DNA of 64,000 bases from assembly GCA_022711395.1 (NCBI GenBank), contig JAKLFA010000003.1:98509-162508 (forward strand). Direction: 5' to 3'. Position 1 is the stretch's first letter. Each line of letters opens with the position of its first letter. The stretch comes from Candidatus Omnitrophota bacterium (lineage in GTDB: Bacteria; Omnitrophota; Gorgyraeia; Zapsychrales; JANLHA01). The position numbers and the translations under genes are program-made. Of the stretch, positions 36,391-61,178 are shown in pieces. The notes under the pieces were generated by a model. The model ran no database searches. It was not told where the DNA came from and saw nothing but the letters and a program-made list of their open reading frames with translations.

Positions 36391-38031
36391 CTATTTTCTT
36401 CCCTCGATCACGCAGATATGCGTATCTGAATCGGTGTAAACCGCCGAACACGCATCCGCCAGAGCATCCCGCATCGTTTCCCAGGTCGCTGGAAAAAGGA
36501 AGATCTTAACCCGGGCCTGCCCCTTCGGCAATTGCGCCGCCAGCTCCTCGGCCTCATGAAGCTCCGTGATCCTGTAGACCCGCTTCTGCGAATACGCCAG
36601 CGCCTCAGGCGGAAGGTCGGTGATCTCAAAATCGAACGATAAACACAGATCATGATACGCGGCGTTCCTTTTGACGAGCTCTCCCACCCTTTTATACTGA
36701 TCATCATCCTCCCCGAAAAACCGTTCGTAACAGAACGCTGTCCTGAAAAAAACTCCGCCCGAAAGAAGAACAAAAAAACTCAGCAGGAACGCCAGATCAA
36801 GCATCTTTCTCCGCCGCATTTCCGGGGCCCGTGTGAAATAAACGACCGGAAATATCCCGAAGGGGATCAAAGAAAAACTCAGGGCCCACTTGAGCGCCGC
36901 GAAGTCATGGATCATCGAATGCTGCTGAAAGACCAGCCCCTGAAGAACACAGGGCAGAACGGTCAGCAGGACCAGATAAACAGCTGTTCCTGCGAGGCCC
37001 CGTTCACGCGCCGGTGTTTTGCCGCGCCCCTTTTCAAACGCGCCATACAAAAACACCATCACCACCGCCGCCACCGTCGACAAGGTCAGGACCAGGCCGT
37101 AACCGTCCACGATGTGCCCGGCAAGATAGTGTTCCAAAAATCCGGGGAAGATGCCCTTCCATCCGACGCCGGACCTCCAGAAGAACGTCTTAAGCAGCCG
37201 GCCGAGGGCACCTGCGGAAAAAATCTGATACGCGTAAATCCCGATGCCCGCAAGAGCGGGGGCCACGAACGTTCGCGCGCTCACGGCGATCTGCCGGACA
37301 CGGCCGGATGCGTCCTTTGAAAAAAACAGCACCCTCAGGACAGCCGCGACCGCGATCACAAAAACAAACAGCCAATCCGTCAGCACGCCCAGGAAAACGG
37401 TCCCGCCCAGCAGGAGGCGGTCAGCGGACTTCAGCGTTCTGTTCAGATAATATTTCATTTCCAGATAAACAAAGATGACAAAAAACAGCATGACCGCCTG
37501 GTCCGCGAAAAAAACATTCTGATGCCAATACAATGTCGGAGGAGTGAACAGATACACCAGCGAAGGCGCCGCGGAAAAGGCAATATTGCCGGGGCTCACG
37601 GCCTTCACGCCGTCGATGATCATGAGCATCAAAGCAAACAGCATCCACGCGATCGCCAGGTGGTTTGCGAGGTTGTAGGCCTGATACAGCCTGATCAGGT
37701 CCTGGATGCCGAAGGCCTTCGCGATCAGGAACGCCGGGATGAACGCTCCGGGAGGATAAGAGACATACGGATCCCTCAGGGCAAGACCGCTGAATTCGAT
37801 CGAATCCGGGTTAAGGACATGCATGAACTTCAGCTTGAACGCGCCGTCGTTAAGCCAATTACGCGTCACGCACACAGAATGCGCCGTCAGCCATTCGTGA
37901 TGGGGCCCCAAAGGCCGGGCGAACCATTTCTGACGAAGAACAACGGAATACATGAAGCACACCCCGATCAGCACAAAGCACAGGGCGGTTATGGCCTTTT
38001 GCCGGTTTATCCCGGATGCGCGCTCTTGCAT
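36391..38031 (-). CDS. Polytopic membrane protein, putative GT-C-type glycosyltransferase
   Basis: More than 10 TM helices plus a C-terminal soluble domain. Sits directly upstream of the FAD-dependent Glf-like gene. Confidence 0.4.
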   Translation of the reverse strand: MQERASGINRQKAITALCFVLIGVCFMYSVVLRQKWFARPLGPHHEWLTAHSVCVTRNWLNDGAFKLKFMHVLNPDSIEFSGLALRDPYVSYPPGAFIPAFLIAKAFGIQDLIRLYQAYNLANHLAIAWMLFALMLMIIDGVKAVSPGNIAFSAAPSLVYLFTPPTLYWHQNVFFADQAVMLFFVIFVYLEMKYYLNRTLKSADRLLLGGTVFLGVLTDWLFVFVIAVAAVLRVLFFSKDASGRVRQIAVSARTFVAPALAGIGIYAYQIFSAGALGRLLKTFFWRSGVGWKGIFPGFLEHYLAGHIVDGYGLVLTLSTVAAVVMVFLYGAFEKGRGKTPARERGLAGTAVYLVLLTVLPCVLQGLVFQQHSMIHDFAALKWALSFSLIPFGIFPVVYFTRAPEMRRRKMLDLAFLLSFFVLLSGGVFFRTAFCYERFFGEDDDQYKRVGELVKRNAAYHDLCLSFDFEITDLPPEALAYSQKRVYRITELHEAEELAAQLPKGQARVKIFLFPATWETMRDALADACSAVYTDSDTHICVIEGRK

Positions 38032-38034
38032 GGT

Positions 38035-39471
38035 CTAGCTTTCTCCCTCCCGCATCTCATGATAAACATCGTCGGCGTTGACCTTCCACAGGTCATAGGG
38101 AGCGCCCGGGAGCCGCAGATAATTGCGCGCCGCCAGGATCCCCGTCATGATCGAATGGTCCTGATTGTTGTATTTGTGCATTCCGCCGCGGCCGATCGCT
38201 GAGAAGTTGGAAAATTCATCGATCCTGGACTTCAGCACGTCATAATGGCCTTCAAACCCGACATAGCTGGCCGGATACGCCTGCGCCTCCCGCACGACCC
38301 AGGACCGTTTGACCGACCGGCCCTGCACAAAGCCCAGCAGCTTTAACTCGTCGACCGCGAGCCTTTCCAGCGCCTCATCCGTCTCGTTCCAAAGGCCCTC
38401 GTTCTGGAAGACAAAATATTCCACGCCCAGCGCGCTCGTGCCGGGATGATCGACCATCGCTTTAGAAAAATTGCCGTAATTGACCAGCCGCGCCATGCGC
38501 ACGTCCGGAGAATGAATGTAGATCCACTGGTCCGGGAACAGGCCCTCCCCTTCCAGAAGCAGGTTCACCGTGATGTGATCACGGTATCGCAGCGCCTTCA
38601 CCGCTTCCTGCACGCGGGTCGGCTCTTGGGGGTCCAGCATGCTGAAAAAACCCTTCAGCGGAATGCTGCTGAAAAAATGCCGCGCGGTAATGTTCATGCG
38701 CTCTGAACCGTCGAGGCAGACATCGACGGACTTGATCGTTGCGCCCTCCCGGCGGATCCCGGTAACGGCCGCCTTCAGCAGAACCTCTGCGCCCCCGGAT
38801 TCGATCCTGCGGCGCAGCGCTTCATACATCTGACCCGACCCCAGGACCGGATAATGGAATTCTTCCACCAGGCTTCTGACATGGTTGTCTTTCTTTTTCA
38901 GGATGGCCTTTTTTAAGATCTGCAGCACGCTGAGATCTTTGATCCGCTGCTCGGCCCACTGCGCGCTGATCTGGTCACACGGCCGGCCCCAGACCTTCTC
39001 GGTATAGGTCTTGAAAAACGCGCTGTAAAGAGCGCGCCCGAACTTCTGGACCACCCAATCCTCGAAGGTGTCCGGCTTTTTTGGGGGGGCCAATTTCGAC
39101 GCGACGAAGGAAGCGATCACCTTCAGCGATTCAACCGGGCCGAGTTTCAGCAGGACGTCCACAGGTTTGATGGGGTAATGAAAAAATTTTTTGTTATACA
39201 AAATGCGCGTAAGACGTGAAACCGGAATGAAATCAGGCCCCAGGGTCTCTTTCCACAACGCCTCGATCTCGGGATTGCGGGTAAAAAAACGATGCGGCCC
39301 GATATCGAACCGCGCGCCTTCATGGACTTCGGTCCGGGCAAGGCCTCCGACGATGTGATTGCGGTCGACGATGATCGTGTCCTTCACGCCGTGTTTGGCC
39401 AGCTCCGCGGCCGCTCCCAGCCCCGCCGGTCCCGCGCCCAGGATACAACATTCGCAAGACTTAAAGATCAT
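38035..39471 (-). CDS. FAD-dependent oxidoreductase (UDP-galactopyranose mutase-like)
   Basis: ILGAGPAGLGAAAELAKHG dinucleotide-binding motif; length 478 aa. Confidence 0.8.
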   Translation of the reverse strand: MIFKSCECCILGAGPAGLGAAAELAKHGVKDTIIVDRNHIVGGLARTEVHEGARFDIGPHRFFTRNPEIEALWKETLGPDFIPVSRLTRILYNKKFFHYPIKPVDVLLKLGPVESLKVIASFVASKLAPPKKPDTFEDWVVQKFGRALYSAFFKTYTEKVWGRPCDQISAQWAEQRIKDLSVLQILKKAILKKKDNHVRSLVEEFHYPVLGSGQMYEALRRRIESGGAEVLLKAAVTGIRREGATIKSVDVCLDGSERMNITARHFFSSIPLKGFFSMLDPQEPTRVQEAVKALRYRDHITVNLLLEGEGLFPDQWIYIHSPDVRMARLVNYGNFSKAMVDHPGTSALGVEYFVFQNEGLWNETDEALERLAVDELKLLGFVQGRSVKRSWVVREAQAYPASYVGFEGHYDVLKSRIDEFSNFSAIGRGGMHKYNNQDHSIMTGILAARNYLRLPGAPYDLWKVNADDVYHEMREGES

Positions 39472-39517
39472 CCGACATTCTCCATTTTGATACAGGGGCC
39501 GATACAGGCCCGGCGCC

Positions 39518-40445: not shown

Positions 40446-40622
40446 TAATAAGACACTACGACACTATGACACTGAGACACTAAAAACCTTTAAACAAGAC
40501 ACTGTGACACTACGACACTCAGACACTAAAACCCTTAAAACCAGGAAACCAAAAATCTTTTTTCTTTTCACTTTTCACGTTTTCACGTTCATAGTGCCTT
40601 AGTGTCACAGTGTCTTATTTTA
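40446..40622. repeat. Octamer-repeat palindromic element, copy B
   Basis: Terminal inverted repeats AATAAGACACT/AGTGTCTTATT. Two blocks of GACACTNN octamers, each followed by AAAACCTTTAAAC-like spacers, plus an internal TTTTCAC(G) x3 tandem. Confidence 0.85.
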
Positions 40623-40643
40623 ATTAGGCCGCTGCCCCCGATT

Positions 40644-41441
40644 TTATATAATATCAAGAATCCGTTGAATTTGAGGAACGCCGTACTCTGCCCTTCCAGT
40701 AACAACTTTTAAATTCGGCAGCACTTCACACTGACCAAAACTATGAGTATGGCCGCACAATACCGTCATCTCAATCATAGGATGTTTTTCCATAAAATTC
40801 TTCAAGACATTTCCGACAACTTTACAAGAAAAAAACGGCAACCAATCATCTCCTGAAATTTGACCTTCATGCCAAGTCGCTTCTTTAAATGGCGGGACAT
40901 GAGTCAAAACAATGATCCTGTTATGCTTCTTTACTGCAAGAGGAAGAACCCGTCTAAAATGTTCTGCCGCTTCATTAGCCAATTCCTGAATAGCACTTAA
41001 ACGCAGGGTCCGATCCCTCGTCTTCAATTCATCGATCAAATAAAAATCATTCAGTTCTACAGAACTACGGTAAAAATCTCCAAACCGTCCATCAGCCCAG
41101 GAATCATGCCCGATCAAAACCGTGTGAGTCGATAAGCTTACAGAGTCGACTGCATTTAACCAAATTAAATTCTCAGAATTTTTTACCAGATCAGCAACCA
41201 TTGATCGGGTTCCCTTGATCGATCCCTCATAATAATCATGGTTACCAAGAACAAAATAGATCGGTCGCTTTAAAACAGATTCCGCATGCTTAAGATAATC
41301 AATGATCTTATCGGCTTCGCCAATATCTCCCGAAACAAAAAAACAATCAACCGTTTCCTCAGATACCAGCAACAGGAACTCTTCCAGTTGATCGTGTTTT
41401 AAAAAATTCAAATGAATATCTGTTAACCAAGCCGCATTCAT
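40644..41441 (-). CDS. Metallophosphoesterase (calcineurin-like)
   Basis: DIHLN, GDIGE, GNHDYY and GHTH motifs. AT-rich codon usage marks it as part of the foreign island. Confidence 0.8.
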   Translation of the reverse strand: MNAAWLTDIHLNFLKHDQLEEFLLLVSEETVDCFFVSGDIGEADKIIDYLKHAESVLKRPIYFVLGNHDYYEGSIKGTRSMVADLVKNSENLIWLNAVDSVSLSTHTVLIGHDSWADGRFGDFYRSSVELNDFYLIDELKTRDRTLRLSAIQELANEAAEHFRRVLPLAVKKHNRIIVLTHVPPFKEATWHEGQISGDDWLPFFSCKVVGNVLKNFMEKHPMIEMTVLCGHTHSFGQCEVLPNLKVVTGRAEYGVPQIQRILDII

Positions 41442-41493
41442 TTTTATTAAAATCCCGCCCTCATGTACGTAAAAAGCTCTCCAGCCGTCTCTT

Positions 41494-42285
41494 CTATGTT
41501 AATTGTGCGATCAATTCTTGAAACCGTTCAAAAATATCCGTCCTTAAATCATCAATAAATACATCCGGTCCATTTTCTTTTTCAACCATCAAACAACCGG
41601 GGCTTGAATTACGCTTAAAATATTTTTTCAAATTCTTTGCCGCTTGCGGCAACTCACCCCTTTTATAATATTGATGAAACTCTTTCAAAATAACATCAAG
41701 GTCGGGAGCATAGCGCAATATAAAGTAGATATAAAAAAGATCTTTCGCTTGTTTTAATTCGTCCTCACGCTCAACAAACACCGCTGATTTATGATAAATA
41801 AAAGCTGAGGGTCTAGGACATAATAAAGAATGGGTTTTATCTCTTCGTGCATCTTTGACGCTGACTGGCGCTGAATGACTCAATAAGAAATCGAAGTCGG
41901 GAAGTTTGTTAAGGCTCATTTGAACCCCAACGAGTTTTTCGACATTCTCTACCGGAATATCCGTCGAACTGATAAAGTCAATGCGAACTTTCCCGCTCTT
42001 AAATAAAACAACCGGATACATCCGATTCATATCTAGATGGCGTTCAGTATAATCAAAGTCCGACAAAATCTGAAAGATGGTTTTCTTATGAACTCGCGGC
42101 TTCTTTGGGCTCACACCAAAATCAATATCCAATGTTGTAACCGGGTTAACAGTAAAATTTTTCCAGATAAAGCGGGGATAAACATACGCCAACCATCCCC
42201 CAACAAGCGTAAGCTCACCGAGATATTCATTCAAATCATCAAGCACACAAAAAAATAAATCTTCTGACTCCATATTATTGGCCAA
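41494..42285 (-). CDS. Nucleotidyltransferase-fold protein, AbiEii-like toxin candidate
   Basis: LTLVGGWLAYVY...R...TLDIDF is an NTase-fold G-G...D-x-D pattern. It overlaps the upstream partner gene by 11 nt. Confidence 0.45.
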   Translation of the reverse strand: MANNMESEDLFFCVLDDLNEYLGELTLVGGWLAYVYPRFIWKNFTVNPVTTLDIDFGVSPKKPRVHKKTIFQILSDFDYTERHLDMNRMYPVVLFKSGKVRIDFISSTDIPVENVEKLVGVQMSLNKLPDFDFLLSHSAPVSVKDARRDKTHSLLCPRPSAFIYHKSAVFVEREDELKQAKDLFYIYFILRYAPDLDVILKEFHQYYKRGELPQAAKNLKKYFKRNSSPGCLMVEKENGPDVFIDDLRTDIFERFQELIAQLT

Positions 42286-42958
42286 GGGTTTTTCCTTCCT
42301 GTTCCAGCTTTTCTTTTAAGAACTCCGACTGCTCTCTCCCCCTGGGCTGAAAATGATATAAATCTAAAAATAACTGCAAATTGGAAACAACAGAATATCC
42401 TTCGATCTTTTGACTGTTTGCAAAAGTGCTTGTTTTATAATACGGCTCAATAAAATGCACATTTCCCCCGGAAACAAGCTCTTTCAAATCAAGTTTCTGC
42501 CGGACATTAAGAATATCCTTATCCCAGTTATCCGTTCTCAAATAAATGTATACTTGATCTGTTTTCACATAAGACGTTAATAAATTAGCACCTGAATGAA
42601 GCGTCAGCGCATAGGTATGATTATTAAGAACGGCTTTCATTTTTTTCAATATATCTTGGTCGTGAGTGTAATACGTCTTGACTGTATTAAGCTCAAACTT
42701 ATAAAATTGCGTCCATTCTTTGATAAGCTTGTCAGGGTAAGTCAACACTGTATGACTCTCTGGTCCTTTTTTGATACGCTCCGCATATCCCTTTTGAGCG
42801 ATGATCTCTAAAACCTGCTGTGTTAATCCGAGACTAACCCCTTCAGGCCCGTTGAAATCTCGCACGACCCATTTGCGATCAGGCTCTTGAAGCATCTTCC
42901 TAAGAATTAATGTCGCCTTATCAGCAAATATGTTCTTTTTATATGTCTTTTTGTTCAT
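42275..42958 (-). CDS. wHTH regulator, AbiEi-like antitoxin candidate
   Basis: Likely start MNKKTYKK at 42958, with a wHTH-like N-terminus (ATLILRKMLQEPDRKWVVRDF...GVSLGLTQQVLEII). Nested operator palindromes lie immediately upstream. Confidence 0.4.
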   Translation of the reverse strand: MNKKTYKKNIFADKATLILRKMLQEPDRKWVVRDFNGPEGVSLGLTQQVLEIIAQKGYAERIKKGPESHTVLTYPDKLIKEWTQFYKFELNTVKTYYTHDQDILKKMKAVLNNHTYALTLHSGANLLTSYVKTDQVYIYLRTDNWDKDILNVRQKLDLKELVSGGNVHFIEPYYKTSTFANSQKIEGYSVVSNLQLFLDLYHFQPRGREQSEFLKEKLEQEGKTLGQ

Positions 42959-43018
42959 AATGTTCACCAATCTATCAATGTTCACTCTTTAGTGAACAAT
43001 ATATAATATATGAACATT
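42959..43018. promoter_or_regulatory. Operator-like nested inverted repeats
   Basis: Half-sites TGTTCAC at 42961 and 42979, and GTGAACA/TGAACAT at 42992 and 43011. TGTTCAC-TCTTTA-GTGAACA is a perfect 7-bp IR. TATAAT-like sequences fall between the sites. Confidence 0.55.
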
Positions 43019-43022
43019 AATG

Positions 43023-43184
43023 TCAAGCGCTCTGGACATACTCACCGTTCTGCTCTTCCTGCACGATGCGCCGGCCCGTTTCCCAGGCAAACCTGACCTG
43101 CGCCTCCCGCGCGTTGGTGTACAGAGCGGAAATATCCTCGACGAGTTTTTGGAACCTGTTTTTAGCTGGAAGGTTGGTGGGCAT
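43023..43184 (-). pseudogene. Truncated N-terminal remnant of a DUF1016 (YhcG-like PDDEXK nuclease) gene
   Basis: A GC-rich 162-bp segment inside the AT-rich island. It encodes MPTNLPAKNRFQKLVEDISALYTNAREAQVRFAWETGRRIVQEEQNGEYVQSA, matching the conserved DUF1016 N-terminus (..NxxLvxLYWxIGrxI..eq.G). It stops abruptly at the AT-rich operator sequence. Confidence 0.5.
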
Positions 43185-43201
43185 GGGCGGTCACCTGTTA
43201 T

Positions 43202-44404
43202 TTACGAATATGTTTCCTTTGTAAAACGCCAATCATATCCATAAGCTTTTTTACGATACCCATATCCTGTTGTACATGGTTTGCGCAAACAAACAGAACT
43301 AATTGATGAAACACAGTTCGTATTTTTAACTTTGCCTTTTTCTACTAGCCACTTTGCCGCCTCATGCTGGCTTGAAAATACTTTCAAAATATTCCCCGAC
43401 TGCAAATCAATCATACAAACTTCTTTACTTGTTTTCGCTGCAGCAGCTTTAGCTCTTTTTTGTGCATTTGCTTGCGCTTCTTGAGAATGTTTATTCTTCC
43501 ATTCTTTTAATGATGCTTTACGCTTTTCATTAGCTTTTTGGCTTGTACGCGAACTTATTAGCTTTTCCTGCCAAGCCTTATATTTTTCTGGGTTTTCTTT
43601 AGCCCACTTTTTAAAGCCAGCTTTTCGTTTTGCTTGGCATTCAAGAGTTTTAATTTTTTCGTGACTTTTCTTTTTTGCTTCAGCATATTCCTTGGGGTTT
43701 TCCTCTCTCCACCTTACAATACGCTTACTAAACATTTCACGATATTTTTCTGAGCTCATGACTTCTTTTATTCTTCGACTACGCGCGCGAAGTTCTGGTG
43801 TATCACCCGATCGAAAAGCTTTTTTGGATGCTTCAAGCATCGGTTTAAACTGCTCAGGATGATTTTTTATATACTCACGTTTCTTTTCGCTTGTTTCTGC
43901 GATGGATGGATGCTTAGTTGTTCCACCGCCGCCAGCAACAAGATTAAGGCATTTTTCATCAGACAAAAGGTCTTTATCGACAATAGTCGCTTCAAGTTGT
44001 TCTGCTTCCTCAGCGGTCTCACATTTTGCGATATAATAACGCGCAAATCGATCTTTATATTTTTTAAACTTATTTACAAATTTTAGTCCAGATCCTTGAT
44101 ATCGTTTTAATTGAGACCATGTGGGCCGATTAGCTTTACCAATATAATATTCGCCGCTTTCCCAGTTTATTTGAATATAAATTACTCTATAATAACCATC
44201 ACTTTCATTTCGTTTACGAACAAGTTCACTTGGGGTTAAAACATCAAACCAACGGTTTTTTATTGCAATACGCTGTTTATTGAAACCCCATTTTGCTGAA
44301 TTACGTTTTGAATCAAAAAAAGCGGACAGATTGTCATCCAAAGACAATTCAGCCGGATTAAATTCCTGCCAAACTCTGATATTTTCATTAATTGTTATTA
44401 TCAT
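43202..44404 (-). CDS. GIY-YIG homing-endonuclease-like protein with a C-terminal IENR1/NUMOD-like DNA-binding repeat
   Basis: N-terminal YYRVIYIQINWESGEYYIGKA (GIY...YIG). Lys/Glu-rich linker. C-terminal KVFSSQHEAAKWLVEKG...TTGYGYRKKAYGYDWRF matches the intron-encoded nuclease repeat pattern (F-x-S-x-x-EAA...G-Y-x-W-x-F). Confidence 0.6.
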   Translation of the reverse strand: MIITINENIRVWQEFNPAELSLDDNLSAFFDSKRNSAKWGFNKQRIAIKNRWFDVLTPSELVRKRNESDGYYRVIYIQINWESGEYYIGKANRPTWSQLKRYQGSGLKFVNKFKKYKDRFARYYIAKCETAEEAEQLEATIVDKDLLSDEKCLNLVAGGGGTTKHPSIAETSEKKREYIKNHPEQFKPMLEASKKAFRSGDTPELRARSRRIKEVMSSEKYREMFSKRIVRWREENPKEYAEAKKKSHEKIKTLECQAKRKAGFKKWAKENPEKYKAWQEKLISSRTSQKANEKRKASLKEWKNKHSQEAQANAQKRAKAAAAKTSKEVCMIDLQSGNILKVFSSQHEAAKWLVEKGKVKNTNCVSSISSVCLRKPCTTGYGYRKKAYGYDWRFTKETYS

Positions 44405-44574
44405 GCTTTAATTGAAATAAAAGTGACGCGCACATTTATTGACTCATTTAAAAAAGGTGTACGTCACGCGTCCCGTTTATTATTTATTCATTTTATCTCG
44501 TGGCTCCGGATTCTTCTGCATAAGCCCATTGAATTCGTCTGCAGTCTTACAGACCAATTTTTTTACCCTTCATT

Positions 44575-46239
44575 TTATTGCTTACACCAAGCGGCGATGG
44601 TATTAATATTCTTCTTTATTGCCGCAGAGATTTGATCATCGCCAAGCCCATCAATTTTAATTAAGACACTGCTTGCCTTATGATCAGCATTCCGAAAAAT
44701 TCCAAGTTCTTCTTCAAATGATTTATCGAATACCGCTAAAGCATCCTCCATAATCCAAGAACACGGTCTTTTGTTATCAGACTCGTCTTTCTTTCTACCA
44801 TCTAGGTCAAAAACGGTAAAATATGGTATTCCAAAGGCTTTGCATAATAGCTGGTAATATGGGATCTTCGACTTCCCATTTGCACTGATAATGGTCACGT
44901 CACAAAGACTTTTATTAATCTTATTAGCCAAAACCGGCATTCCATATTTCTCAGCGGGTCCTTCAACAATTAAACATTTACGGGCAAAGAATATTTGATT
45001 ATCCTCACGAAAGAATACTGTTTTATGCTGATGAAATTTTTTAATCTCATCGAGGTGCTCCGACACTTCCTTGTTTTCTATAACCTCATTCAGCTTTTCT
45101 GCCTCCGGCGTATTCTTAAAATCTCTGTTGAACCGACTTATTGAATCCCAATTGGCGATACTTATAAAACAATCCGATTGCGTTGTGTAAACTATTTGAG
45201 ATGATGATTTTTGAAATTCCTTGAACAATCTCGACTGCAATTGAGGATGCAAATGAAGTTCCGGCTCATCTATAAGAAATACTATTTCCCCTCTCGAAAG
45301 ACTACTAATAATCTCTAATAAAAAATAAGCCAATAAAATGGAGATACCGGAACCGAGGTTTTTCTGGTCAATTTGATTCGACCCATCGCGTAATGAGAAA
45401 AAAGATTTTAAAAACGGCTGTTCGATATCCAATAAACTCAGCTCTAGATTTTCGCACTCAATACCAACAAAATCTTTTAGCTTCTCTCCTAGCGGCCGCA
45501 TAATGCGGTCATTTTTTGGATCAATCACAGTGGCGATAACCTGGCTGTAAAAATCTTCCCACTTCTGCACGATATCCACCTGAACCCATTTATTCCTGTA
45601 TCGCCAGTTTAAATCCTTTATTATTTTACTCAAAAGCGTATTAAAACCGGTACTTGCTTCACTTTCTCTGTCACGATCAAAATAAAATATGTTTGGATAA
45701 TTTATGAATTCATTCTGCAGTGATAACCTTTGCTGTGTGAACTTAAAGACAGAGTTAGCTGTTTTACGCGGAGATTCATATCCTTGATCAGTCTTAAGCA
45801 CTTTATCTGGGATTTTGGTTGATAGCGCATCTAAATAAATGCACTGAAGCTCCTCTTTAGAGTTATACAAAATTGGTACAGCATATTTCTCTGTCACGAA
45901 CGGATCAGACAATGCTTTTCCTCCCGCGGCCTGTTTTCTTCTATGCGCTGAAAACACGACGCTTCGACACAAAATATCCTGAGTGGTATACCCATCGGGT
46001 ATCTTACACAAAAAGGGCTTATCGAAATATACTGTTATCCCCAAATCTCCTTCGTCGCTATTATTGAAATCTTGCTCAGTGATATATGCATATCCTGATG
46101 AAGTTGCTAAATTAATAGCTTCTAAAATCGTGGTTTTGCCACAACCGTTTTCTCCAATTAAGGCATGACATTTTTGAAAATCGACATCAACTTTCTTAAA
46201 ACATCGAAAATTATTTATTTCTATTCTAGATATTGCCAT
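44575..46239 (-). CDS. OLD-family ATP-dependent endonuclease (ABC ATPase plus Toprim), apparently stand-alone (class 1-like)
   Basis: Walker A GENGCGKTT. ABC signature and Walker B region (VFLIDEPELHLHP). C-terminal Toprim (LIVEGPAEKYG ... FTVFDLDGRKK). Confidence 0.8.
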   Translation of the reverse strand: MAISRIEINNFRCFKKVDVDFQKCHALIGENGCGKTTILEAINLATSSGYAYITEQDFNNSDEGDLGITVYFDKPFLCKIPDGYTTQDILCRSVVFSAHRRKQAAGGKALSDPFVTEKYAVPILYNSKEELQCIYLDALSTKIPDKVLKTDQGYESPRKTANSVFKFTQQRLSLQNEFINYPNIFYFDRDRESEASTGFNTLLSKIIKDLNWRYRNKWVQVDIVQKWEDFYSQVIATVIDPKNDRIMRPLGEKLKDFVGIECENLELSLLDIEQPFLKSFFSLRDGSNQIDQKNLGSGISILLAYFLLEIISSLSRGEIVFLIDEPELHLHPQLQSRLFKEFQKSSSQIVYTTQSDCFISIANWDSISRFNRDFKNTPEAEKLNEVIENKEVSEHLDEIKKFHQHKTVFFREDNQIFFARKCLIVEGPAEKYGMPVLANKINKSLCDVTIISANGKSKIPYYQLLCKAFGIPYFTVFDLDGRKKDESDNKRPCSWIMEDALAVFDKSFEEELGIFRNADHKASSVLIKIDGLGDDQISAAIKKNINTIAAWCKQ

Positions 46240-46301
46240 TACGCCCTCTTATTATTGAACTTATAAAAATAAAGGCAACGGACACATTTGCTACGTTCCC
46301 T

Positions 46302-46652
46302 TTATGGCCGCTTTTCCATCCTGCCTTTGACCAGCTTGGCCGGATACTTCCTGGCGTTCTTCTTTATCTTCCTGAGGACCGCCTTTTCCAGGTCGATCCC
46401 GTATAGGCCGCAAAACCCCATCAAATAAATGGCCACATCCGCGACCTCATCCTCGATCTCAAATTTTTTGCGTTTGTCTTTCAAGATCTGAGCCGCCTCT
46501 TCAGCCGAATTCGTCCACTGGAAATGCTCCATGAGCTCCGCCGCTTCGATAGACAGGGACATGCTCAAATTTTTTGGGGTATGGAATTTTTCCCAATCCC
46601 GTTCTTTAACGAATTTTTTTATTTTATCCTGGATCAAAGATATTTCATTCAT
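46302..46652 (-). CDS. MazG-like nucleotide pyrophosphohydrolase
   Basis: EAAELMEHFQW and EIEDEVADVAIYLM match the MazG EExxE/D motifs. Start taken at the Met with a GGGGGAA RBS (the track ORF extends to 46712). Confidence 0.8.
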   Translation of the reverse strand: MNEISLIQDKIKKFVKERDWEKFHTPKNLSMSLSIEAAELMEHFQWTNSAEEAAQILKDKRKKFEIEDEVADVAIYLMGFCGLYGIDLEKAVLRKIKKNARKYPAKLVKGRMEKRP

Positions 46653-46776
46653 GCAATTCCCCCGATCAGAAAATAATAAAGGCCAGGGAGCTCCTGGCCA
46701 CAATACAGTCATTACGTTTTTTATATCTCAACTTTAAAAAAGCGTCCGTCATGTTTTTTGTTTTTTCCTATTTTTT

Positions 46777-47916
46777 TTAGGAATCATATTCACTCTTAAA
46801 ACTCCCTAGAGAATGCGTATTAATTTTATAAACAGACTCTTCTATTTTATAAATAATAACATTATCAGAATTAAATTCCTGCAGATGGCTTAATGTTGCA
46901 ACCTGACCCGGAACCAATTGAAGTTTTTTTCTTAAAATCCAATTCCCCAATTCTTTATTGGGATCGCTCATTAAAGCTTTACATCCCTGCTGACAAACCT
47001 TTGCTGTCATTTCCCTCCCATCATCTGTAATAAGCTTAAACTTCTGGTCTTTCGGCGGGAAAAAGCCGGGCTTCACCTGATGGATAATCTGTGGAATCGG
47101 AATATAAACTTCATCCGGATGACGAGACCGTCCGCCCGCATTCCATTGGTTAAGGCCGGATTTCAATGAGACTTTTCCTGTTCTTGTACTGTAAAGAGGC
47201 AGAATCACATAATCTGTTTTCTTGATAAGACTGCGATCTACAGTATCCGGCTCACTAAGTTCATCAAGGGCTGCATTTAAAAGCGCCTTGTTTAAAAACC
47301 CGTTAATTTCTACAGCATCAAAATATTGCGCATAACTAAAATCCATAAGAAGAACACTCTTGGATATATTGAATGTATATTTAAAATACTTATCTTCAAA
47401 AGCCACTGACCCCCGTTTTTTTTCGATCCCTCTAATTGAAGGAAGATCAATAGGGATCATAGGACACTCTGCGATATATATTTTCCCTACATCCCGAACA
47501 ACATAATGATAAACGGTGTTTTTAAGGCCGTACGCCTTTACCGTTTCTTCTATCCGCTGATTCCTATATAAAGCAACCTGCTTTATTAAATGATCATCAT
47601 TTGTTAAATCTAATGGGAACTTCGCGCGGTTGTTAAACTCAGCCACTTTTTCTGTCCCGCGCATTGCTGGTTTTGCCAAAAAAGTTTTTACGCCTATCCC
47701 ATCTGTGATCTTAACAGCATCAACCGAAACATCTTTTCGGGTTTCGTCAGAGGCTTCAAAGGCTTTGCAGAAAATTTTTTCAACAACCCGATAAGGCAGA
47801 TACGGTTTTGTATTTCCGCTGAATATTGGACTAAGCTGAGCTGTGCCTAATATAAGCTGTTTGTATTTTTTTCTCTGAGGGGATGATTGTTTAGGATAAA
47901 AGGGGTCAAAAAACAT
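46777..47916 (-). CDS. Putative type II restriction endonuclease (partner of the adjacent C5-methyltransferase)
   Basis: 379 aa with no methyltransferase motifs. Position is immediately downstream of the dcm-like and vsr genes in the same orientation. AT-rich. Confidence 0.5.
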   Translation of the reverse strand: MFFDPFYPKQSSPQRKKYKQLILGTAQLSPIFSGNTKPYLPYRVVEKIFCKAFEASDETRKDVSVDAVKITDGIGVKTFLAKPAMRGTEKVAEFNNRAKFPLDLTNDDHLIKQVALYRNQRIEETVKAYGLKNTVYHYVVRDVGKIYIAECPMIPIDLPSIRGIEKKRGSVAFEDKYFKYTFNISKSVLLMDFSYAQYFDAVEINGFLNKALLNAALDELSEPDTVDRSLIKKTDYVILPLYSTRTGKVSLKSGLNQWNAGGRSRHPDEVYIPIPQIIHQVKPGFFPPKDQKFKLITDDGREMTAKVCQQGCKALMSDPNKELGNWILRKKLQLVPGQVATLSHLQEFNSDNVIIYKIEESVYKINTHSLGSFKSEYDS

Positions 47917-47950
47917 TATCCAGCTGTTCTTTCCATTAGAGCGTTCTGCT

Positions 47951-49012
47951 TCATCCTGCAGCCGGCTCTAATACATTTTGAACTCGATAGGATCCGGCAG
48001 CATTCTGATATTTCATATCTAAAGCAATCCTAATCTTTTCCGCGATACGGCGTATTACAGGAACACTCACAGAATTTCCCATCTGCTTATAAAGATGCGC
48101 TGAGGCTATATCGGGAAGACGAAAATCATCGTCAAACCCCTGCAGGCGGGCACATTCACGCGGAGTCAGCTTGCGAATGCCGTAATTATCACGGACAAGC
48201 GGAACATTATGGCCTCCGGTTCCCATATTTGCTGTCAAAGTCGGGCATACTCCGCTTTTATTCTCCCGAAGATAAACCCTCCGCCACTGATAAACAGTAT
48301 TCTTAGATTTCATCTGTTCATTCAGAACTTTATAAAAACCGCATTTCTCAGTATAGTAATATTTTCTGTCAACTTTCTTTTGTTCTAAAATGTCTCGACG
48401 GACCGTTTTTGTTAATTCACTCTTTTGAGGAAAAGAAAAATTATCAGAACAACTCCCGTCTCCTCTTACCCATGCAGATTCGTCTTGAAAACCGACAATA
48501 TAAATTCTTTCTCTGGTCTGCGGAATATTGCCGTACTCCATTGTATTAAGAACTTTCGGAATAAAAGAATAGCCCGTATCTTTAATTGTTTCTTCCATCA
48601 CGCGGAATGTTCTGCCGTTGTCATGGGCAATAAGATTTTTGACATTTTCTAAAAGAAATGCTTTCGGCTTAAGACTTGTAATTATTTTCATCGTTTCAAA
48701 AAACAAATTACCCCTGGAGTCTTCAAATCCCTTTCTGTAACCGGCAATAGAGAATGCCTGACATGGAAAACCGGAGGTAATAACATCCGTCTTATCAAGA
48801 AAGCTCATCTTCTGATTAACCAAATCATGAACATCGTCTGGAAAGAATTTATGGGAAAAATTGGATTCGTAAGTGATCTTTGCATTCTTATCAAATTCAT
48901 TTGCCCATAAAAGCTGAAAACCTGCCTGTTCAAAGCCTCGGCAGATCCCGCCTATTCCTGCAAATAAACTTCCGACCGTATACTTTGCTTTTTTTACCAT
49001 GTTATGATTCAT
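47951..49012 (-). CDS. dcm: DNA (cytosine-5)-methyltransferase
   Basis: Motif I FAGIGG, motif IV PCQAFS, motif VI ENV. Confidence 0.9.
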   Translation of the reverse strand: MNHNMVKKAKYTVGSLFAGIGGICRGFEQAGFQLLWANEFDKNAKITYESNFSHKFFPDDVHDLVNQKMSFLDKTDVITSGFPCQAFSIAGYRKGFEDSRGNLFFETMKIITSLKPKAFLLENVKNLIAHDNGRTFRVMEETIKDTGYSFIPKVLNTMEYGNIPQTRERIYIVGFQDESAWVRGDGSCSDNFSFPQKSELTKTVRRDILEQKKVDRKYYYTEKCGFYKVLNEQMKSKNTVYQWRRVYLRENKSGVCPTLTANMGTGGHNVPLVRDNYGIRKLTPRECARLQGFDDDFRLPDIASAHLYKQMGNSVSVPVIRRIAEKIRIALDMKYQNAAGSYRVQNVLEPAAG

Positions 49013-49070
49013 TTCAATCCTCCATTTTAAGGGGGAAATTTAAGGAATGAGGATTGAAGCATGTTACCAC

Positions 49071-49505
49071 TCATATGTGTGGAATGTCAATACTTTTCTT
49101 TTCTTCAAACAACGGCTTTAATTTAGAAAAAACTTTTAATTCCTTTTTTACTTCACACTCCCAAACTGTAATAATACGCCAACCATCTTTTTTTAACGCT
49201 CGTTTATTTATTTTATCGCGTTCTAAATTTCTTTCAAGTTTCGGAACCCAATATTTTTTATTTGTTTTTGGTACATTTGCCCGGCGGCATCCTTTATGGC
49301 AATGCCAAAAACATCCGTGAACAAAAACTACAGTTTTATATTTAGGAAGAACTATATCCGGCTTCCCGGGAAGACTTTTTACATGAAGCCCGAATCTAAA
49401 TCCCACCCTATGAAGAATACTTCTAACTATCTTTTCGGGCTTCGTATCCGCGGCCCGTATGCGGGACATATTCCAGCTTCTTTTTTCTCCGCTCAAATGG
49501 TCCAT
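49071..49505 (-). CDS. vsr: Very short patch repair endonuclease
   Basis: SWNMSRIRAADTKPE N-terminus. FVHGCFWHCH zinc motif. Length 144 aa. Confidence 0.9.
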   Translation of the reverse strand: MDHLSGEKRSWNMSRIRAADTKPEKIVRSILHRVGFRFGLHVKSLPGKPDIVLPKYKTVVFVHGCFWHCHKGCRRANVPKTNKKYWVPKLERNLERDKINKRALKKDGWRIITVWECEVKKELKVFSKLKPLFEEKKSIDIPHI

Positions 49506-49620
49506 ATGTCAGTTCATCACTAATATTTTCTGTATGATTATACCATTAACAAACTGCTGTAAAATCGTTTATTCTTTATTTCGAGATGTCTGCCATATTA
49601 AATTCATCAGATTTTTCCTG

Positions 49621-51207
49621 TCACCAATCAATCGGAAAGTAGTCTTTGAGGAATTTGCCGCACCAGTGTTTGCCCGTGAGGATGCCGCTAAAGAACGGAT
49701 CGCACACCCGCGCCGCGCCGTCCACAATGTCCAAGGGCGGCTGAAAATCATGCTGCTCCTGCTTAAACGCTGCCAGGGCGGCCGGATCTTCGTCCGTCAC
49801 CCAGCCGGTATCGACCGCGTTCATGTAGATGCCGTGCCCGGCCAACTCTGCCGCGGCCGTGTGCGTCAGCATGTTGAGCGCGGCCTTGGCCATGTTGGTG
49901 TGGGGATGGCGTTCGCTTTTTTTAAAACGCAAAAACTTCCCCTCCATGGCCGACACATTGACGATGTGTTTCTGCCCCGTCACGTCGCGCTTCATCATCG
50001 GGATGAGCCGGTTGCACAAGACAAACGGCGCGATCGCGTTCACCAGCTGAAGCTCGAGCATCTCAGCGGTCGGAACTTCGCCGAGCTTTAGCCGCCAGCT
50101 GTTGGTCGCACGCAAATCCACCTGCTGAAGATCCGCGTCGAGCTTTCCGCTGGGGAAAACTTCCTGAGTGTTCAGCGCATGATCATACGCGTAGGGGATC
50201 TGCGAGAGTGCGGCGGATGCGCGCAACCCTATCCCCGGCGTTCGGCCCGTCCAGCTGACCGGCAGGCCTTTCTCTGAGCTGAGGGCGTCTTTTGAAAAAG
50301 ACGCGAGCCTTTGCTTGCATTCTTCAAAATCATCCATCAACGAAAGCGCCTCGATCGGAATTTCAAAATGCGCCTTCGCTTCATTGGCCATCAGGTGTTT
50401 ATAAAACCCCGGCGGGCGCCTCACGGTCTGGGCCGCGTTGTTGATCAAAATATCCAGGCGGTCATATTTTTGTTCCACAAAAGAACAGAAGATCTCCACG
50501 CTCGGTGTATGCCGCAAGTCCAGCCCGTAGATGTGCAAACGGCTTTTCCAGTTTTCAAAATCCTCTTCTTTGGAATACCTGAGCGCCGAATCCACCGGAA
50601 AGCGTGTGGTGGCGATGACCCTCGCTCCGGCGCGCAGCATCATGAGCGTCGCCTGATATCCGATCTTTAAACGCGAGCCAGTGATGAGCGCGACCCGCCC
50701 CTCAAGAGAGGCGGTCTGAAAGCGTTTTTGATAATTCAACTCTGCGCACGACGGGCACATGGAGTCATAAAAAAAGTGGAGTTTGGTGTACTCGGCCTTG
50801 CAGACATAACAGTTGCGGGCGGATTTCAGCTCTGGTGGTGGCGCCTTCGGGGGCTGCGGCTCCTCCGGCGTTTGCGGGTCGTGGGCCTGCGCCTCTTCAA
50901 ACGCAATTTGTTTGGGCGCGCTGAACACTTTGGCCTCGCGCGCTTTGCGGATGCCTGTGTTGGCGCGGGCCATGCGTTCGTGCGTGCGGGTGCGCTGGCG
51001 TTTGGCTTTGCGGATCTCGCGTTTGCGCGCGACGATCTCATCGCCGTTGGGCTGCGCGAGCCTCCCTGCGGCTTTCAAAAGCTGGATGCGTTCTTTTTCA
51101 GATAATTGAGCGAGCTTGGAGCTGTCTTCAACTAAACCTTCAAGGATCGAAATGCATTCCGCGATTCGTTCAGGTGATGGAGTGATCGGATTTTTTGGGG
51201 TGGTCAT
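49621..51207 (-). CDS. SDR-family oxidoreductase with an N-terminal charged/zinc-ribbon extension
   Basis: [25 protein letters not shown] Rossmann motif and NNAAQ. N-terminal CYVCK...CPSC. Confidence 0.75.
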
Positions 51208-51239
51208 AGGGGAAGATTATAGCATGACTTTTAACAAAA

Positions 51240-51370
51240 GACACTAGGACACTACGGCACTACGACACTAAAAACCTTAAAACCCTAGTCACTAAGTACC
51301 AATGTCTTAGTGTCTTAGTGCCTTAGTGCCTTAGTGCCTTAGTGCCTTAGTGTCTTAGTGCCTTAGTGTA
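51240..51370. repeat. Octamer-repeat palindromic element, copy C
   Basis: AGACACTAGGACACTACGGCACTACGACACTAAAAACCTTAAAACC, then a hairpin with loop TACCAATGT, then 8 CTTAGTG(C/T) octamers. It overlaps the last codons of the STAS-like gene. Confidence 0.9.
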
Positions 51371-51716
51371 ACAGCCATTCCAACGCATCGGCCCGATCGC
51401 GAAAACTGTGGACGTTAGCGCCCCGGTTGACCGAGATGTTTTCAGCGAATCGCATATTTTGTTCAAGCGTGTCAAGGAAGGCGACTTTCAGATCGCCGAA
51501 ATGCGTCTTTGAATGGGACCCCAGCTCTGCCTTATCCAGTTCTGGGATGGAGCCTTTCAGATGTGTCAGATCAATGAGGATCTTATTTTTGCCGCGGGCG
51601 CGGGCCTCCTCCGCCGCGGTCTGCCCGCTTTCCAGAAACCGCTCAAAAGAATATTTGCCCTCCAAGATCACCTCTAAATAAAGTTCTTCCTCAATGGTTG
51701 TCACCTTGAAACTCAT
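51363..51716 (-). CDS. STAS/SpoIIAA-like domain protein (DUF4325-like), hypothetical
   Basis: 117 aa with a KILIDLTHL core. Bracketed by repeat copies C and D. Confidence 0.45.
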   Translation of the reverse strand: MSFKVTTIEEELYLEVILEGKYSFERFLESGQTAAEEARARGKNKILIDLTHLKGSIPELDKAELGSHSKTHFGDLKVAFLDTLEQNMRFAENISVNRGANVHSFRDRADALEWLLH

Positions 51717-51786
51717 AGAGCATGCCCCCTGTTGTTGGAATAGAAAATATTATAAAACATGAAGCGCGGAAGGTAAAGCATTTAAC

Positions 51787-51954
51787 TAAGACACTGAGAC
51801 ACTACGACACTGAAAACCTTCAAACAGGACACCCTGACAATACGGCACTAGGGCACTAAAATCTTAAAAACATTAAAACCAAACAGTCAAAAAAAAGGCA
51901 CCAAGAGCTTCCAATGTCTTGGTGCCTTAGTGCCTTAGTGTCACAGTGCCTTAA
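51787..51954. repeat. Octamer-repeat palindromic element, copy D (more diverged)
   Basis: TAAGACACTGAGACACTACGACACTGAAAACCTTCAAAC ..., a central perfect hairpin GGCACCAAG-AGCTTCCAATGT-CTTGGTGCC, then CTTAGTGC octamers. Confidence 0.85.
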
Positions 51955-51961
51955 TTAGCGC

Positions 51962-52516
51962 CTATTTATTTTTTTTCCGTAAAAACGCGCCGGCCAGTCC
52001 GGTCGAAAAAAGCAGCATCGTCGCCGGTTCGGGGACCGCGTTAGGAGCAGTAACATCTCCGATCGTGACCCGGTAACTGTTCAAAGAAAGAGCGCCTAAC
52101 AAACGCGTGTGATTGGGATCATCAACGCTCCAATAATTCAACTGAGGATCGGAATTGGATGTGTAAATACCATCCGGCAAAATGTCATATCCCGGCGCAT
52201 TGGCAAGACCAAGCCCCATAGGAATCAGGGTCGTTCCACTATAGACCCCCCAATAACTTCCCATGTTATAATCTATTCTTACAGCCGGAGAATATTCCCC
52301 GTTCAAAAGCGGATAACCATTCGATTGCCCCCCCGCCAACTCATCCCCGTCAGAAATAACCGTGAACGGAAGCCATACCCGGTAAGCCCCGGATTCAGCT
52401 ATATCCGTATAGGTCACATTCGGGTCCGTCCCCCAAAACCATGTCAGCGCAAAAGCATCGGACGCCAGGATAAGCGTCACAGTCAGAACTACGGTTAAAA
52501 TTATTCCTTTTTTCAT
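51962..52516 (-). CDS. PEP-CTERM sorting-domain protein
   Basis: Signal peptide. C-terminal VPEPATMLLFSTGLAGAFLRKKNK. Confidence 0.85.
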   Translation of the reverse strand: MKKGIILTVVLTVTLILASDAFALTWFWGTDPNVTYTDIAESGAYRVWLPFTVISDGDELAGGQSNGYPLLNGEYSPAVRIDYNMGSYWGVYSGTTLIPMGLGLANAPGYDILPDGIYTSNSDPQLNYWSVDDPNHTRLLGALSLNSYRVTIGDVTAPNAVPEPATMLLFSTGLAGAFLRKKNK

Positions 52517-52546
52517 TTTCCCCTCTTTCTATTTTTGACTTTCCCT

Positions 52547-53188
52547 CTACGCTTTACGCTTTCGCTTTTTTAGCGCCATACCCGTCAGCCCCGCGCCGAA
52601 CAAAAGCATCGTCGCCGGTTCCGGAACTGCCGATGTCCCGTCCCCCCGGACAGTAAGATCATCAATAAAAACTTCGCTTCTGCTCGTTATGTCGGACACC
52701 TTTAGACTTATTTTTGAAATAACACTATCGATATTAAAACTCAACTCCCGGTATGTGGAATCTGCCACCCCGGAATTGACAGGGTTTTTACTAAAAACAT
52801 ACCCCGCCGAAGGATCGGGATCAAAAGCAACTCCATCCAGATAGATAAATCCCTGCGATCCCCAGTTTCCGAATAATTCGATGTCTTTAAATGATAGCAT
52901 CGAGACATACGTCGGCTCATCGAAATCAATGTTCAAAATTGTTTCATAACTCGAAAAACAGCTTGCACCGCAGGTCGAACGGCCAAAACCAAACGCCTTG
53001 GTGCTGCCAAAAACAGTTTGATCAACGATGCCTGGATCAGAAGAAAAACTTCCCGCTGAAGAAAATGAAGCTCGTGGATCCAGAACACCATCTTCAAAAT
53101 TTTCAGAAAATATGACAAGCGCAAACGCATCGGACGCCAACATAAGCGTCACAGCCAGAACCGCAGTTAAAATTATGCCTTTTTTCAT
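52547..53188 (-). CDS. PEP-CTERM sorting-domain protein
   Basis: Signal peptide identical in style to its neighbour (MKKGIILTAVLAVTLMLASDAFA). C-terminal [26 protein letters not shown]. Confidence 0.85.
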   Translation of the reverse strand: MKKGIILTAVLAVTLMLASDAFALVIFSENFEDGVLDPRASFSSAGSFSSDPGIVDQTVFGSTKAFGFGRSTCGASCFSSYETILNIDFDEPTYVSMLSFKDIELFGNWGSQGFIYLDGVAFDPDPSAGYVFSKNPVNSGVADSTYRELSFNIDSVISKISLKVSDITSRSEVFIDDLTVRGDGTSAVPEPATMLLFGAGLTGMALKKRKRKA

Positions 53189-61177: not shown

Positions 61178-61178
61178 A

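Follow-up and report, generated by a model that had tools for sequence, protein, structure and literature searches.

Was a block of AT-rich defence genes acquired by its host as one ready-made island, or was it put together piece by piece around genes that were already in place? We asked this question of a nine-kilobase segment (positions 40623 to 49620) in a 64-kb stretch of contig JAKLFA010000003.1 from a Candidatus Omnitrophota bacterium; we refer to the whole 64-kb stretch as the window and to the segment as the island. Nine open reading frames (ORFs) of 116 to 554 codons, all on the minus strand and closely packed, fill the island. We consider it likely that this is a chromosomal defence-gene hotspot in which AT-rich foreign DNA entered a native locus at three places, around a MazG-like gene and the remnant of a yhcG-type nuclease gene. 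Taken as a whole, the island is of an ordinary, known kind; a few of its parts are unusual, and its GIY-YIG gene family is the most unusual of these.

The island is set apart by its base composition. In 500-nt windows, GC content is 0.33 to 0.44 between approximately 40500 and 49500, compared to 0.55 to 0.59 on the left flank (38000 to 39500) and 0.51 to 0.61 on the right (49500 to 51000). Positions 40623 to 49620 have a GC content of 0.385 and the remainder of the window 0.545, and nowhere else in the window, at 1-kb resolution, does GC content stay below 0.45 over nine kilobases. The profile is thus far from uniform and breaks sharply at both island edges. The AT-richness described in the original prediction for this stretch is therefore real, although the flanks have a GC content of approximately 55 to 57% rather than the 60% given there. 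GC content at third codon positions (GC3) is 0.25 to 0.40 in eight of the genes, which encode a metallophosphoesterase (MPE), a nucleotidyltransferase (NTase), an AbiEi-type regulator, a GIY-YIG nuclease, an OLD-family nuclease, a restriction endonuclease (REase), a DNA methyltransferase (MTase) and Vsr; in the longer host genes it is 0.68 to 0.79. Because GC3 is down by approximately 0.35, the shift is not confined to the first and second codon positions. A codon-usage log-likelihood ratio, comparing a host model to an island model with each gene left out in turn, ranged from -54 to -227 for these eight cargo genes and from +18 to +64 for small host control genes.

The gene identifications of the original prediction were all reproduced with Pfam, PADLOC, NCBIfam or PHROGs. 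The PADLOC run confirmed the defence content, with matches to the models REase_II, MTase_II, Vsr, GajA/Old and HEase, so that several recognised defence systems are clustered here. Co-orientation, which had been put forward as a further mark of the island, does extend to all nine ORFs, which lie at the coordinates given there; however, it carries no weight because almost all the flanking host genes lie on the minus strand as well.

Two pieces of the island carry host-like composition, and the earlier claim that every gene in it has a mobile or defence function does not extend to them. The first is a gene for a MazG-like nucleotide pyrophosphohydrolase of 116 aa (46302-46652, minus strand; PF12643, 4.6e-14, 52.9 bits against a cut-off of 27). 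Its GC3 is 0.62 overall, 0.70 across codons 23 to 116 and 0.32 across codons 1 to 22, and its codon log-likelihood ratio is +15.9, compared to the strongly negative values of the cargo genes. MazG-like homologues (44 to 62% identity) are present in 14 of approximately 160 loci that we fetched with the protein encoded on the right flank of the island, a short-chain dehydrogenase/reductase (SDR): L061, L012, L039, L040, L042, L047, L052, L060, L062, L109, L111, L125, L147 and L025. In 12 of the 14, the MazG-like gene is directly upstream of and co-oriented with the homologue of the 520-aa SDR; the distance is approximately 1.5 kb in L012 and 9 kb in L025. Most of these loci are labelled as metagenome-assembled genomes (MAGs) of Omnitrophota or "Planctomycetales," and the MazG-like and SDR genes form a conserved pair without assigned function. 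Because its codon usage is host-like and the SDR gene is its recurrent neighbour in relatives, the MazG-like gene is probably native rather than island cargo and separates two blocks of AT-rich DNA, which we call A and B. A GC-rich terminator-like hairpin (GGCCAGGAGCTCCCTGGCC, then a T-rich run; 46699-46681) lies just upstream of it. The region from 46587 to 46712 may be a recombination junction of block A that reaches into the 5' end of the MazG-like gene.

The second host-like piece is a 5' stub of 53 codons (43023-43184, minus strand) from a gene for a YhcG/DUF1016-type PDDEXK nuclease. It aligns to residues 4 to 58 of Salmonella YhcG (BLASTP, 2e-8), a protein that itself matches PF17761 (DUF1016_N) and PF06250 (YhcG_C); the stub alone has no Pfam match. 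In a tblastn search of plasmids, which matched 24 records, nine of the 15 matches listed fell under genes annotated as "PDDEXK nuclease domain-containing protein," and the two matches that we inspected start no more than 9 nt from the start of such a gene. The alignment to the YhcG N-terminus and the matches at plasmid gene starts identify the piece as the 5' end of a yhcG-type gene. With a GC3 of 0.70 and a codon log-likelihood ratio of +16.8, it is host-like in composition, and the DUF1016 remnant proposed earlier is upheld.

Because the MazG-like gene and the yhcG stub are host-like, the island is split into three AT-rich blocks: A (46653-49620), B (43185-46301) and C (40623-43022). On the simplest reading of these sequences, the two embedded pieces would be leftovers of the native locus. 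That locus probably consisted of the SDR gene, the MazG-like gene, the yhcG-type gene, an intergenic octamer-repeat element and a lipoprotein gene. It would have received three insertions: a restriction-modification (R-M) cassette as block A, two independent single-gene cassettes as block B, and an AbiE-like toxin-antitoxin (abortive-infection) operon as block C. Host-like pieces embedded between AT-rich blocks favour the mosaic or stepwise history that had been suggested.

For two genes, horizontal acquisition is seen directly in the DNA identity that each shares with copies in unrelated surroundings. Between the OLD gene and a copy on an unrelated contig (L172), this identity is 89%; it sets in 9 nt ahead of the ATG and ceases at the stop codon. 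The GIY-YIG gene is 78 to 86% identical, with the identity confined to the ORF, to copies in a Syntrophorhabdaceae MAG, Legionella and a marine bacterium. Homology shared with other loci stops at the limits of single ORFs and in no case extends over two island genes, and relatives of each block are found in separate contexts of their own.

Both edges of the island are where the original prediction had placed them. On the left, the octamer-repeat element (40446-40622) is real and abuts the AT-rich DNA; it is of host type and marks the left edge. On the right, the spacer between the SDR stop codon and vsr (49506-49620) is non-coding and AT-rich (GC content 0.29; 0.287 unrounded), with two promoter-like minus-strand sites (49624-49595 and 49563-49534). 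We detected no tRNA gene in the window, no integrase or recombinase domain in the island genes, and no convincing direct repeat flanking the island. Like other chromosomal defence islands, this one has unrelated anti-phage systems (R-M, OLD and AbiE-like) clustered together, an atypical composition, and systems that occur in other combinations elsewhere. It differs from them in the lack of an integrase, tRNA gene or repeat boundary, in its apparent interruption by two remnants of host composition, and in a left edge at a lineage-specific octamer element. The island is 100% identical in five independent assemblies.

Several observations weigh against insertion at three places in a native locus. 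We infer the number and order of the insertions from composition only. The MazG-like gene is found upstream of the SDR gene in relatives but 3 kb downstream of it in the island, and its AT-rich first 22 codons weaken the argument from synteny. The OLD relatives lie directly after R-M systems, so blocks A and B could be functionally linked. Within block C, the view of the MPE gene as an orphan, set out below, rests on three other contexts, and an AbiEii-MPE pair in locus L173 suggests that MPE may instead be a third operon component. A palindrome-avoidance screen of host DNA for the specificity of the R-M system found GCSGC (observed/expected 0.91), GCGC, GGCC and CCGG undepleted. Finally, a scan with the SDR protein found no empty site in species-representative genomes and metagenome contigs, where relatives are at ≤72% identity; the nearest relative, a metagenome contig (L085) whose SDR is 88% identical, breaks off within that gene, and every contig retrieved by exact match to the SDR or amine-oxidase protein carries the island.

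Arrival of the whole 9 kb as one pre-assembled island, with the MazG-like gene and the yhcG stub carried in from the donor, would explain why the genes are co-oriented and tightly packed and why the island is invariant in five assemblies. It would also fit the AT-rich start of the MazG-like gene, the usual position of OLD relatives beside R-M systems, and the joining of an AbiEii-MPE pair, an R-M system and an OLD gene in a single locus (L173). We nevertheless judge a single event unlikely: the two embedded segments match the codon usage of the host and not that of the cargo, the MazG-like gene is a recurrent neighbour of the SDR gene in relatives, and homology is limited to single ORFs. Somewhat less probable again is an origin from an integrative element, such as a phage satellite or a recombinase-bearing primase-helicase island, of which only the cargo end would survive, in decayed form and stripped of the integration module. 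OLD homologues do lie beside DUF5659 and primase-helicase genes in L172 and partly in L173, with a serine recombinase in L172; the Legionella copy of the GIY-YIG gene sits inside an element with integrase and primase; and the archaeo-eukaryotic primase (AEP)-helicase gene expected at the left edge is cut off there. Against such an origin stand the segments of host composition inside the island and the fact that neither within it nor beside it does an integrase, a recombinase, a primase, a tRNA gene or a flanking direct repeat occur.

We regard as highly improbable that the AT-richness is intrinsic to native genes, through expression level or amino-acid bias, with no horizontal transfer. A cluster of PEP-CTERM protein genes in the window also deviates in composition (GC content 0.45 to 0.51), which shows that atypical composition occurs outside the island. 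However, the OLD and GIY-YIG genes are 78 to 89% identical in DNA to copies in unrelated genomes and contexts, and for the GIY-YIG gene these include copies in other phyla, a cross-phylum identity that contradicts an intrinsic cause; the GC3 drop of approximately 0.35 and a gene content typical of defence islands argue in the same direction. Stepwise insertion into the native locus, which we prefer, would make the island a clean example of piecemeal assembly in the poorly studied phylum Omnitrophota, with single-ORF cassettes placed between surviving host genes and no recombinase or tRNA target.

Block A encodes three proteins, all on the minus strand. Vsr, a very-short-patch repair endonuclease (49071-49505), matches PF03852 (1.9e-29, 101.7 bits) and TIGR00632 (151 bits against a cut-off of 97.85). 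The C5 cytosine DNA MTase (47951-49012) matches PF00145 (6.8e-89, 298.9 bits) and TIGR00675 (1.6e-96, 323.9 bits); the motifs FxGxG, PCQ, ENV, QxRxR and GNSV are all present when the translation is read by eye, and the closest solved relative is M.HhaI (2e-55). The third protein (46777-47916) is an NgoFVII-type REase. It matches the PADLOC model REase_II PDLC03479 over its full length (3.5e-75) and PF20731 (RE_NgoFVII_C) over residues 244 to 358 (2.4e-18), and plasmid genes that bear the annotation "NgoFVII family restriction endonuclease" or "PLD domain-containing" share 38 to 40% identity with it from end to end. We infer the biochemical activities and the anti-phage effect of the island proteins. 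In block A, the MTase would mark host DNA and the REase, with its B3-like domain, would cut unmarked incoming DNA, while Vsr would repair the T:G mismatches left by deamination of 5-methylcytosine.

The REase belongs to a family of 899 clusters at 50% identity (E below 1e-3), and it retains every near-invariant position of a 59-sequence alignment. The conserved residues of the family, D62, D66, K77, E93, H137 and E150, include no obvious HxK motif. The N-terminal half of the island protein has no Pfam match, PF09565 included, and no recognised HxK phospholipase-D motif, so that the curated match is limited to the C-terminal B3-like domain; the labels "PLD domain" and "NgoFVII family" derive only from the annotation of the plasmid homologues. 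Against solved structures, phmmer returned no match up to an E value of 10, R.NgoAVII and BfiI included. Both R.NgoAVII and R.CglI need an ATPase subunit, and the HxK active site of R.NgoAVII is H104/K106 (PMC4267654); there is no gene for a DEAD/helicase-like ATPase subunit of the N.NgoAVII or H.CglI type in or beside block A. We do not claim membership of the NgoAVII type because no HxK motif was recognised, no solved structure matches and the ATPase subunit is missing. No relative of the REase was found in IMG/VR. A His-to-Ala change at position 81, seen in a three-sequence alignment, was dismissed because the position is unconserved among the 59 homologues.

Plasmids carry similar cassettes. 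On a Priestia megaterium plasmid (NZ_CP065336), a homologous REase lies within a cassette of M, C-protein, R and Vsr genes, and on a Finegoldia plasmid another homologue lies in an R-M pair. The neighbouring MTases are 56% (Priestia) and 53% (Finegoldia) identical to the island MTase over the whole length, including the variable region, and the Priestia Vsr is 38% identical to the island Vsr. The M-R-Vsr trio is thus a recurrent unit, as homologues of all three proteins occur together on the Priestia plasmid and those of the R-M pair on the Finegoldia plasmid. Judged from these sequences, the island MTase is cognate to the REase, and the two co-vary as homologous pairs on the two plasmids. Compared to NgoFVII/NgoAVII/BfiI-type systems, block A is alike in the full-length identity of its REase to the annotated NgoFVII family and in the C5 MTase and Vsr alongside; it differs in having neither a C-protein gene nor an ATPase subunit and in its gene order, Vsr-M-R.

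Block B consists of two genes. The first in the direction of transcription encodes an OLD-family nuclease of 554 aa (44575-46239, minus strand), with an ABC ATPase region (AAA_15, 2.4e-28, residues 1 to 358) followed by a Toprim domain (OLD-like_TOPRIM, 7.4e-16, residues 417 to 480). The Walker A, Walker B and Toprim acidic residues are intact when the translation is read by eye. The PADLOC GajA and Old models both match at approximately 1e-36; among solved structures, the class 1 OLD protein of Thermus scotoductus (PDB 6P74) is the closest relative (2e-27), and GajA matches at 1e-5. We found in the island no GajB-type UvrD-like helicase, no reverse transcriptase and no AriB as a partner, and the Toprim domain is fused rather than separate; an Rfam scan found no RNA family in the island. 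By partner content, the gene may be described as class-1-like. As in other class 1 OLD proteins (P2 Old and TsOLD, 6P74), ATPase and Toprim are joined in one partnerless protein. Such an enzyme would degrade phage or damaged DNA.

A review describes class 1 OLD genes as single genes away from other defence genes (PMC10568477). The island gene differs from this description: its own surroundings are a defence island, and in its closest relatives an R-M operon comes immediately before the OLD gene. In L172 (8001-9665), a homologue with 93% identity follows a Type I R-M system; in L173 and L174 (L173 8001-9662), a homologue with 82% identity follows a Type III-like methylase and helicase pair after a 3-nt gap; and in L175 and L176 (L175 6001-7659), a homologue with 61% identity overlaps hsdM of a Type I system by 4 nt. 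Because an R-M system lies upstream in all four contexts examined, a weaker lead is that this OLD clade may work as an accessory to R-M systems. Its recurrence after R-M operons, unlike the isolated single genes of the review, is one of the parts of the island that deserve attention. The neighbourhood of the L172 homologue also holds DUF5659, primase-helicase genes and a serine recombinase, and that of the L173 homologue DUF5659 and primase-helicase. We tried and rejected two candidate pairings of the OLD gene. None of the examined contexts of the GIY-YIG gene contains an OLD gene, which speaks against a two-gene system of these neighbours, and a system with the MazG-like gene was set aside because homology to L172 begins 9 nt upstream of the OLD ATG and the MazG-like gene has host-like composition.

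The other gene of block B is a free-standing GIY-YIG nuclease gene of 400 aa (43202-44404, minus strand). The match to PF01541 (5e-4, 20.7 bits) is below the cut-off of 22.6; the PADLOC model HEase (8e-6), a PHROG endonuclease family (2e-5) and F-LimXI of a Dickeya phage (7e-4; 32% identity, domain only) also match. Along the protein, a putative I-TevI-like catalytic domain is followed by helical repeats rich in K and E and then by a C-terminal domain in which four cysteines are conserved. For an AlphaFold model of moderate quality (pLDDT 65), the one sensible fold match was the I-TevI catalytic domain (1mk0; TMt 0.63), with a non-significant Foldseek E value of 0.82. The GIY, YIG, Arg, Glu and Asn positions and the four C-terminal cysteines are invariant in 32 family members. 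The family comprises at least 571 proteins, seen under the source names "hypothetical protein" or "GIY-YIG domain-containing protein"; the best 120 are 73 to 87% identical, approximately 400 aa long, and come from Omnitrophota, Syntrophorhabdaceae, three Legionella species, Chlorobium and marine samples.

Copies of the GIY-YIG gene occupy dissimilar places. One lies within an integrase and primase element of Legionella sainthelensi (L167), one stands alone between radical-SAM and GAPDH genes in the Syntrophorhabdaceae MAG (L168), and others (L169 to L171) share a marine region of defence-like character with DUF4145 and a Type ISP enzyme. The gene keeps a GC content of 0.35 to 0.37 and a GC3 of 0.23 to 0.26 whether the host flanks have a GC content of 0.34 or 0.50, and dN/dS is 0.16 to 0.25 at a dS of 0.44 to 0.94. 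ORF-limited identity, constant GC content and low dN/dS indicate a functional coding gene that has moved between phyla. In L168 (7001-8272), the ATG of the family is changed to ATC, and the ORF is read from an upstream ATG, seven residues longer. We found no homing target, as the four contexts share no flanking similarity and the gene is intergenic in unrelated loci. Neither the plasmid collection nor the phage genomes contain close relatives, and phage matches are remote and confined to the domain; IMG/VR contains one full-length relative, at 45% identity.

Phages encode free-standing GIY-YIG homing endonucleases, such as I-TevI, the Seg proteins and F-LimXI, with which the island protein shares the core residues, a linker, a probable DNA-binding C-terminal domain and the arrangement as a single intergenic ORF. 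It differs from them in its length of 400 aa, its long K/E-rich helical repeats, and its presence in the chromosomes of several phyla at 73 to 87% identity. We put forward, as a tentative suggestion that may well prove wrong, that the gene represents a family of nuclease genes, uncharacterised and either selfish or defensive, that spread between bacterial phyla as units the size of an ORF. It could be a homing-endonuclease-like element without an intron or phage vehicle, or a new single-gene defence system. The high conservation of this family across phyla is, with the R-M association of the OLD clade, what makes these parts of the island worth following.

Block C begins with a two-gene operon on the minus strand. 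Its first gene (42275-42958) encodes an AbiEi_2-type regulator and putative antitoxin (PF09952, 2.3e-9, 38.2 bits against a cut-off of 21). The second (41494-42285) encodes an NTase of the GSU2403 or NTP_transf_8 (PF12281) family (3.1e-12), a putative toxin; with an alternative ATG at 42273, the two genes overlap or abut. An AbiEi_2 gene is paired with the NTase gene in every context examined, namely L177, L178, L179 (the pair alone) and the P0246 contigs, and one NTase homologue has the source name "GSU2403 family." The original prediction of an AbiEi/AbiEii-like pair holds for the regulator and for the operator-like repeats; for the NTase, which falls outside DUF1814/PF08843 (AbiEii) by sequence, the likeness is in fold only. 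The NTase profile found no solved structure by sequence, and the NTase had no match in the plasmid collection. Its fold is closest to those of the toxins TglT, MenT1 and MenT4, and because of this the protein is most likely toxin-like. MenT/AbiEii-like toxins are described as modifying tRNA acceptor ends (PMC7450476, PMC10435456), and by analogy the NTase most likely works as they do.

The promoter and operator region of this operon (42952-43026, minus strand) is also the junction of block C and the yhcG stub. It contains the best sigma-70-like match of the island, TTGACA-17-TATATT (43026-42998), upstream of the AbiEi_2 gene. Five of the 48 TGTTCA/TGAACA hexamers in the window fall within these 70 nt, including GTTCAC-N6-GTGAAC, and they overlap the promoter-like match. 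Autoregulation of AbiE operons via inverted repeats in the promoter has been described (PMC7319586), and the hexamer cluster, as a putative operator, fits such a scheme by analogy. AbiEi_2 would repress its own promoter via the TGTTCA/TGAACA repeats and would neutralise the MenT/AbiEii-like NTase toxin. The operon resembles AbiE/MenAT type IV toxin-antitoxin systems in its bicistronic order of regulator and NTase, its AbiEi-family partner, the inverted repeats in its promoter and the fold of the NTase. It differs from them in that the NTase belongs to PF12281 and not PF08843, and in that an MPE gene follows in the same orientation.

This last gene of block C encodes a calcineurin-like MPE of 265 aa (40644-41441, minus strand; PF00149, 2.9e-12; phrog_1649; GC3 0.35), in which the motifs DxH, GD, GNHD and GHxH are present when the translation is read by eye. 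In L102, an MPE with 67% identity is translationally coupled to a gene for an 801-aa AEP-TOTE/helicase and to an AbiEi_4-like gene. The P0246 contigs, which carry the closest NTase (71% identity), have AbiEi_2, NTase, a 265-aa Metallophos gene and an 805-aa AEP-TOTE/helicase gene; we liken this Metallophos gene to the island MPE by length, family and gene order only. In L173, an unrelated AbiEii gene (PF08843) overlaps a different Metallophos gene. The original prediction had listed the MPE as a function of its own, whereas it accompanies the AbiEi_2-NTase pair and, elsewhere, the AEP-helicase gene. No AEP-TOTE primase/helicase gene is present in the 64-kb window, and the octamer element starts 21 nt after the MPE stop codon. 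The MPE gene is either the orphan half of an MPE and AEP-helicase pair or a true third gene of AbiE-like operons. Insertion of block C, or a later deletion, would have removed the rest of the yhcG gene and the AEP-helicase gene.

The recurrence of a GSU2403-family NTase with a MenT-like fold and AbiEi_2 together with an MPE and an AEP-helicase is of interest beyond this island. A gene for an AEP-TOTE primase/superfamily 2 (SF2) helicase of approximately 800 aa, a 265-aa MPE gene and a gene for an AbiEi-type protein recur in L102 (52-3832) and in the P0246 contigs. In the latter, the cluster adjoins a set of kinase, phosphoesterase and RNA-ligase genes that resembles an RNA-repair set. The cluster of AEP-TOTE/helicase, MPE and AbiEi genes may be an undescribed conflict system.

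The octamer element at the left edge is a palindromic intergenic element of 177 nt (repeat families D1 and D2, inverted repeats I1 and I2), to which Tandem Repeats Finder assigns a period of 8. The octamer pattern has 31 matches in the window and none in shuffled sequences. Four homologous elements lie in host intergenic spacers (35250-35445, 40446-40622, 51231-51370 and 51773-51961), with the common structure (GACACTNN)n, AAAACCTTAAAAC, spacer, (CTTAGTGC)n; in one pair, identity reaches 94% across 138 nt. A long hairpin is predicted for the element at 40446-40622 (-57.6 kcal/mol, z -5.45). The equivalent spacer of L085, the relative with 88% identity, lacks the element, as do all other loci that we fetched. 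The element might be MITE-like (miniature inverted-repeat transposable element) or REP-like (repetitive extragenic palindromic), might act as a terminator, or might provide an array of sites for protein binding.

Elsewhere in the window, the PEP-CTERM cluster consists of four tandem genes (51962-54505), two of which also encode F5/8 type C or C-type lectin domains. Codon usage is nearer to that of the island than to that of the host in three of the four genes and about neutral in the fourth (53864-54505), so that a second segment of atypical composition lies a short way past the SDR gene. In the host part of the window (1-40622 and 49621-64000), GATC is over-represented (observed/expected 1.36) and GTAC is under-represented, with nine occurrences compared to 47 expected (observed/expected 0.19); the scarcity of GTAC may be a sign that another part of the genome encodes a restriction system specific for this site. 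A full-length cyclic di-GMP-I riboswitch aptamer (Rfam RF01051, 55.6 bits) is located at 13106-13198 on the minus strand.

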